A stretch of 64,000 nt of DNA, taken from assembly GCF_056712565.1 (NCBI RefSeq), contig NZ_CM160072.1. One strand, written 5' to 3'. Shown piece by piece: positions 26,567 through 26,734 of this stretch. The position numbers and the translations under genes are program-made. The notes under the pieces were generated by a model. The model was not told the DNA's origin and did no database searches. It saw only the letters and a list, made by a program, of their open reading frames with translations. How positions within the stretch are numbered: position 1 is the stretch's first letter; the number at the start of each line of letters is the position of its first letter.

Positions 26567-26734
26567 ATGCACTTCCGAGTCACAGGTGAATGGAATGGAG
26601 AGCCATTCAACAGAGTTATCGAAGCAGAGAACATCAACGACTGCTATGACCACTGGATGCTGTGGGCGCAGATAGCACATGCAGACGTAACTAATATTCG
26701 AATTGAAGAACTGAAAGAACACCAAGCCGCCTGA
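26567..26734 (+). CDS. Small hypothetical protein (55 aa; below the ORF-track cutoff)
   Basis: Own translation MHFRVTGEWNGEPFNRVIEAENINDCYDHWMLWAQIAHADVTNIRIEELKEHQAA; GGAG Shine-Dalgarno; stop inside terminator stem. Confidence 0.45.
   Translation: MHFRVTGEWNGEPFNRVIEAENINDCYDHWMLWAQIAHADVTNIRIEELKEHQAA

Follow-up and report, generated by a model that had tools for sequence, protein, structure and literature searches.

The 55-codon frame upstream of torI in a CUS-3-like prophage of Escherichia coli as a very probable copy of lambda orf55

Two overlapping forward frames compete for the same DNA near the right end of a prophage, and the locus therefore raises the question of which of them, if either, encodes a protein. 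The window analyzed here is a 64,000-nt stretch of contig NZ_CM160072.1 (NCBI RefSeq assembly GCF_056712565.1). One candidate is a 62-aa mechanical ORF that begins with ATG and occupies positions 26487..26675 (+ strand). The other, taken from the ORF list, is a 55-aa ORF that also begins with ATG and occupies positions 26567..26734 (+ strand). The size of the latter is by itself nothing unusual, because the window holds 146 mechanical ORFs of 50 to 70 aa. A sequence-only reading, based on an ORF track whose lower limit was apparently 60 aa, had nevertheless preferred the 55-aa frame over the 62-aa frame displayed in the track, and had proposed that the conservation of both frames be compared across homologous prophages. 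That comparison was carried out here and favored the 55-aa frame.

The DNA is from E. coli, and the window includes the right-hand end of a CUS-3 prophage of the P22-like type, which adjoins dsdC. The 401 nt around the 55-aa ORF (orf55) were 100% identical to the corresponding sequences of UTI89, S88, APEC O1, IHE3034, and others, and of CUS-3 itself, and, of 5426 complete E. coli genomes, 3488 carried part of this 401-nt query. On the + strand, a gene for a LexA-family repressor (20569-21219) is followed by one for an N-like antiterminator (21648-22040; phrog_271, E value of 3.2e-37) and then by genes for Erf, SSB, Abc2, an Ea22-like protein, a DUF4752 protein, and an ASCH-domain protein, and finally by orf55 and torI; dsdC lies beyond torI on the opposite strand. 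Together the + strand genes make up the early-left operon of a lambdoid prophage of the P22 type, in which orf55 comes last before the excisionase gene torI. The same early-left (pL) position, on one strand, after the recombination and accessory genes and upstream of xis/int, is common to the orf55 copies of lambda, 434, HF4s, mEp043, and Klebsiella prophages.

The upstream part of the operon departs from UTI89 in annotation and in length. The Ea22-like ORF at 25360-25932 (+ strand) is intact at 190 aa and is annotated whole in CUS-3, while the RefSeq annotation of UTI89 gives a partial Ea22-like pseudogene and a separate 54-aa hypothetical protein over this stretch. The repressor gene and orf55 lie 1367 nt closer together in the window than in UTI89, despite the identity around orf55, and the early-left region (window positions of about 21200-25400) must therefore differ by insertion, deletion, or module exchange. 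In UTI89, ral, a TolA-like pseudogene, cIII, and kil are annotated in this region.

The right boundary of the prophage also deserves comment. The GenBank record of CUS-3 marks a 16-nt "attR core" (TTGCAGGTTCGATTCC) that corresponds to window positions 26757-26772, between the orf55 terminator and torI, and as marked it leaves the excisionase gene outside the phage. The same stretch is present between orf55 and xis in the free phage HF4s. After torI, at 27066-27080, the window carries the sequence CTGCAGGGGACACCA, which resembles the 3' end of a tRNA gene and which we take to be the end of argW; an ARAGORN search of the window detected no tRNA. Eighteen viral contigs lose their homology to the window at 27079-27082. 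From the HF4s stretch, the tRNA-end-like sequence, and the point at which homology stops, the real end of the prophage appears to lie after torI, as in KplE1.

The 55-aa frame has gene-like sequence features. A Shine-Dalgarno sequence, GGAG, noted in the sequence-only reading, is located at 26556..26559 (+ strand), with a 7-nt spacer to the ATG at 26567; E. coli copies retain it, and in Klebsiella-type copies it reads AGGAG. The frame ends with TGA at 26732-26734 and specifies a 6.5-kDa product with a pI of 4.9. When codon usage was scored as log-odds with the 29 long ORFs of the window as the training set, ORF55 reached +0.22 bits/codon, at the 92.5th percentile of the 146 window ORFs of 50 to 70 aa. 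The product matched phrog_676 over positions 1-55 of 55 (E value of 3.7e-40). Scans of the 55-aa ORF against Pfam and NCBIfam matched no model, and a sequence search of the PDB gave a chance match only (E value of 0.64).

This frame had been described as unannotated, which is true only of the ORF track used for that reading. The RefSeq annotation of UTI89 contains a CDS at exactly the orf55 coordinates (WP_000545737.1, hypothetical protein), the CUS-3 record lists it as ABQ88443.1, and a phage 434 record of the 1990s names the gene ORF55 (AAA67903.1). The phage lambda counterpart, orf55/lambdap35 (NP_597778.1), lies between ea8.5 and xis. The protein encoded in the window is 98.2% identical to both the lambda protein and 434 ORF55. 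The orf55 gene of the window is thus a known, already catalogued phage gene and an ordinary finding, and nothing found here alters existing knowledge of orf55, which is among the last lambda genes without an assigned function.

To compare the two forward frames, 96 homologous loci were assembled from IMG/VR contigs, phage records, and contigs encoding more distant proteins, and these reduced to 82 distinct 268-nt regions. The 55-aa frame was intact in 81 of the 82, the exception being HK022; in the three most distant copies the start lies a few codons upstream, and these copies are annotated or open ORFs of 54 to 64 aa. Among 56 distinct indel-free coding sequences, variable columns were distributed over codon positions 1, 2, and 3 as 18, 9, and 46 (chi-square P value = 2.3e-7). 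Ratios of dN to dS (Nei-Gojobori) ranged from 0.07 to 0.27 in comparisons with lambda, 434, mEp043, and the Stx phages; Klebsiella-type copies, for which dS is saturated, gave about 0.1; the ratio of about 1 against the very close HF4s copy rests on some 8 substitutions in all, too few to be informative. Because of the codon-position pattern and the dN/dS of about 0.1, the 55-aa frame is shown here to evolve in the manner expected of a protein-coding sequence under purifying selection.

More distant homologues extend the same picture at the protein level. Klebsiella and metagenome contigs encode homologues with 67 to 78% protein identity, and Morganella phage IME1369_01, Flyfo siphovirus Tbat2_3, and "Pseudomonas phage 15b" encode homologues with 36 to 53% identity; each of these lies upstream of xis/int. 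A profile search of 1.84 billion representatives gave 51 matches at the 50% identity level and linked orf55 to no named family. The orf55 family (phrog_676) is thus shown here to be a small one, found in temperate enterobacterial phages.

Three terminator-like hairpins surround or touch the gene. The first is an intrinsic-terminator hairpin with a U-run at 26496..26526 (+ strand), homologous to t-L4 of 434 and HK022; its stem-loop (26496-26517) has a folding energy of -13 kcal/mol (z = -5.3) and falls inside the 62-aa frame. Variants of this t-L4-type hairpin keep the pairing, with a T.G pair replaced by T-A in 434 and HF4s. The second, found by terminator scan and folding, is a terminator-like hairpin with a U-run at 26528..26555 (+ strand), the stem-loop of which (26528-26547) has an energy of -11 kcal/mol (z = -4.9); in Stx2-86-type phages an unrelated perfect hairpin, GGAGC-TTCG-GCTCC-T7, occupies its place. 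The third (26724..26749, + strand) overlaps the orf55 stop codon and consists of AAGCCGCC-TGAT-GGCGGTTT at 26724-26743 followed by TTTATTG, with an energy of -13 kcal/mol (z = -2.95). The sequence-only reading had put the stop codon inside a terminator stem. The hairpin does overlap the stop, but "stem" is slightly imprecise, since the tetraloop opens with the TGA, and the 5' arm is made up of the last three sense codons. This 3' hairpin is kept along with orf55, including in Klebsiella-type copies.

When the window was compared with 91 loci, the blocks of homology ended on the left at 26488-26520 in 46 of them and on the right at 26744-26754 in 56 of them. Since the block ends coincide with the flanking hairpins, orf55 travels between phages as a terminator-bounded mosaic module, and the clustering of breakpoints suggests that these conserved hairpins serve as junctions for mosaic exchange. 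The neighbors of the gene vary: ASCH, ea8.5, ant, or other genes are found upstream, and a torI-type xis, ORF114, lambda xis, or other genes are found downstream.

With these data, the alternative assignments of the stretch can be weighed. The 62-aa frame might be the real gene, its translation coupled to that of the ASCH gene upstream, and the 55-aa frame a by-product. Its ATG at 26487 indeed overlaps the ASCH stop codon (ATGA), the sequence AAGGTG lies 9 nt upstream, and the frame is free of stops in 42 of the 82 distinct homologous sequences. Yet only 25 of the 82 have a start codon at the corresponding position, only 17 have both the start and no stop, and stop codons interrupt the frame in lambda, 434, mEp043, HF4s, and the Stx phages. 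Where the two frames overlap, allele changes read in the 62-aa frame are 55 nonsynonymous, 6 of them to stop codons, versus 8 synonymous, and dN exceeds dS in most comparisons. The frame has no Pfam, PHROG, or NCBIfam match; its tblastn identity is 57 to 62% in phages in which that of ORF55 is 91%; and its codon-usage score is negative (-0.12 bits/codon, 36th percentile of the same 146 ORFs). It also spans two terminator hairpins, one of them annotated as t-L4 in phage 434, and it is annotated in none of the public records examined (UTI89, 434, CUS-3, lambda, and other phage records). We judge the 62-aa ORF to be a chance open frame that takes in the terminators and the first two-thirds of orf55, and not a gene; the proposal that it encodes a protein has a vanishingly small probability and can be regarded as already refuted by the conservation analysis, which bore out the earlier preference for the 55-aa frame.

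Similar reasoning applies to the opposite strand and to a locus with no coding function. An 82-aa antisense shadow ORF (26552..26800, - strand) covers orf55, and in favor of a gene there, 44 of 60 distinct sequences have no stop in this frame over the extent of orf55. It has no family match, however (best PHROG E value of 0.24), and is annotated in no record. Moreover, the variable third positions of the sense frame are the first positions of the antisense frame, so that the antisense protein changes freely, and its start lies within the torI leader, which is absent from most homologous loci (homology ends at 26744-26754). We judge this ORF to be noncoding and give a gene there almost no chance. 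Alternatively, neither frame may code, and the stretch may be regulatory RNA or DNA made up of early-left terminators and a spacer before xis. Such a reading is in keeping with the three terminator-like hairpins within 250 nt around orf55, with the 5 terminator-like sites found where shuffles of the region gave 1.4 expected, and with two sub-threshold Rfam matches. Those matches, found in 26300-27200, are far below the gathering scores, however (RsmY, 19.7 versus 57 bits; STnc130, 24.3 versus 55 bits), and a noncoding stretch is already contradicted by the wobble-position substitutions together with the dN/dS of about 0.1, by the protein-level homologues at 36 to 53% identity, where DNA similarity is gone, and by the confident fold prediction obtained from the family alignment. 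We therefore hold a purely regulatory stretch to be very improbable.

A second antisense frame in the vicinity is also of note. A 116-aa antisense ORF at 26156-26506 (- strand), which lies over the ASCH-domain gene, matched phrog_20945 with an E value of 3.8e-65; it is listed as ECRS218_0062 in the CUS-3 GenBank record and is unannotated in RefSeq. The family phrog_20945 was probably built from shadow-ORF annotations, and this case shows that a PHROG match alone is no proof of a gene.

Against the assignment of orf55 as a gene stands essentially nothing, apart from a deletion in HK022 and a compensated frameshift in one metagenome copy. In HK022 (NC_002166.1, positions 595-605; window equivalent, 26567-26572), a 1-nt deletion directly after the ATGC of orf55 leaves the frame without its start, and for this reason the gene is not annotated there; this copy is either a pseudogene or the product of an old sequencing error. 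In ENA contig ERZ1714329 contig_2279 (positions 1501-1668), the reading of orf55 shifts to an alternative frame for some 12 codons before it is restored, and this copy is probably an assembly error or a decaying one. We conclude with high confidence that 26567..26734 is the copy of lambda orf55 carried by this CUS-3-like, P22-like prophage, that it is under purifying selection, and that it closes the early-left operon. For quality control, the case means that a 60-aa cutoff hid a genuine 55-aa gene and displayed a spurious overlapping 62-aa frame instead, and that conservation by codon position decides such choices between frames quickly.

A promoter scan of 25900-27300 found no sigma-70-like promoter on the + strand. 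Because of this result, the terminators upstream, and the N-like antiterminator encoded in the operon, expression of orf55 would occur by read-through from pL. By analogy with established lambdoid biology, orf55 should be silent in the lysogen; once the prophage is induced or a cell is infected, polymerase modified by the N-like protein would pass the upstream terminators, and orf55 would be expressed early, just before xis. Several small ORFs of the lambda pL operon are highly expressed (PMC9239242); a DNA Research re-analysis of lambda ribosome profiling does not mention orf55. We also considered orf55 as a moron, an accessory gene transcribed independently between a promoter and a terminator of its own, and rejected this description; a terminator is present downstream, but the scan of 25900-27300 gave no sigma-70-like promoter for the gene, and the elements upstream of it are terminators.

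What the product does was approached through its predicted structure. The orf55 protein is acidic, with a charge of -6.1 at pH 7, and its AlphaFold2 model (mean pLDDT of 91.8) has a beta-beta-alpha-beta arrangement, with strands at residues 2-9, 12-19, and 41-49 and a helix at residues 23-37. Modeling of lambda Orf55 has given the same fold, along with a docking model, offered explicitly as speculation, of a T7 Gp2-like interaction with RNA polymerase (PMC8614690). Older genetics places orf55 within the "bin" segment (orf73-ea22-ea8.5-orf55), which blocks the initiation of host DNA replication (PMC9239242). The product might act through binding to a host protein, for which it would be a decoy or modulator of small size, acidic character, and beta-beta-alpha-beta fold; this is a weak proposal, and its published candidate target is RNA polymerase. 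The literature consulted here contained no experimental evidence for the orf55 product or its target.

We compared the model with known structures and the sequence with the Gp2 family (Pfam PF16857, phrog_1307), to which T7 Gp2, an inhibitor of E. coli RNA polymerase (PDB 4LK0, 4LLG, and 2WNM), belongs. The best Foldseek match in the PDB was T7 Gp2 on E. coli RNA polymerase (4lk0_M; E value of 0.093; probability of 0.98), a nonsignificant match with a TM score of 0.58 to 0.61 and 23% identity. Gp2-family proteins were also the only named function among the top BFVD matches, again nonsignificant, and neither the PDB nor BFVD gave a match at an E value of 0.001 or below. Alignment of 21 orf55 homologues with 21 Gp2 homologues by hhalign gave a probability of 1.3% and an E value of 0.04 over 27 columns; orf55 did not match Pfam PF16857 or any other Pfam model at an E value of 1 or below, and phrog_1307 was absent from its PHROG matches. 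Arginines R56 and R58 on strand 3 of T7 Gp2 are needed for binding the beta' jaw, and both were invariant in the 21 Gp2 homologues. In the residue register taken from the profile-profile alignment and PMC8614690, the orf55 equivalent of R56 is N43, a nearly invariant Asn, and that of R58 is R45, replaced by Gln or Glu in 4 of the 21 orf55 homologues. Membership of orf55 in the Gp2 family (PF16857) was rejected, as the profile comparison failed and the pair of invariant arginines is not kept; a similar way of working, outside that family, we consider rather unlikely. The published model of Gp2-like binding to RNA polymerase is thus only weakly echoed by our structural comparison.

It is conceivable that Orf55 forms a widespread, terminator-insulated host-takeover module of temperate enterobacterial phages, the small acidic product of which binds RNA polymerase or a replication-initiation factor and so gives the "bin" effect, a tentative proposal that we consider rather unlikely. 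If it were true, temperate phages would possess in Orf55 a milder equivalent of T7 Gp2, with an origin separate from that of the Gp2 family; as a model the proposal has already been published, and only its experimental confirmation would be new. A different reading, which we consider improbable, is that Orf55 does not bind a host protein at all and either assists site-specific recombination as an accessory factor or modulates the expression of xis/int. Translation as far as the stop codon in the loop, for instance, might mask the 3' hairpin, so that read-through into xis would be coupled to the translation of orf55. The position of orf55 directly or nearly upstream of xis/int across at least three excisionase/integrase types (lambda Exc, DUF1233, and TorI-like) would accord with such a role, as would the conserved stop-in-loop arrangement, which the Klebsiella copy shares (CCGCC ACTGA GGCGG). 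Gene order is generally conserved in lambdoid phages, however, and position alone therefore says little; other genes lie between orf55 and xis in 434, HK022, mEp043, and Stx2-86; N-type antitermination already overrides such terminators; and orf55 has no DNA-binding motif or family match in Pfam, PHROG, or NCBIfam.

Other known proteins of the same operon are the exo-xis proteins of lambdoid phages (Orf73/TraR-like, Ea8.5, Ea22, Orf60a, Orf61, and Orf63), with which orf55 would share early expression from pL, although these small proteins have no sequence relationship to Orf55. Laboratory nonessentiality is common to them and orf55, and host-directed or lysis-lysogeny roles have been proposed or shown (PMC3824215, PMC9239242); the literature consulted here reports no individual phenotype for Orf55. 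The closest systems are lambda orf55 and 434 ORF55. Their products have the same length as that of the window gene and are identical to it in 54 of 55 residues, and the genes occupy the same place, at the end of the exo-xis/early-left region before xis, with the same t-L4 hairpins upstream and the same hairpin at the 3' end. The phage of the window differs in being P22-like (CUS-3) rather than lambda; the upstream neighbor of orf55 is an ASCH-domain gene in place of lambda ea8.5, and the downstream neighbor encodes a TorI-type excisionase where lambda has Xis.
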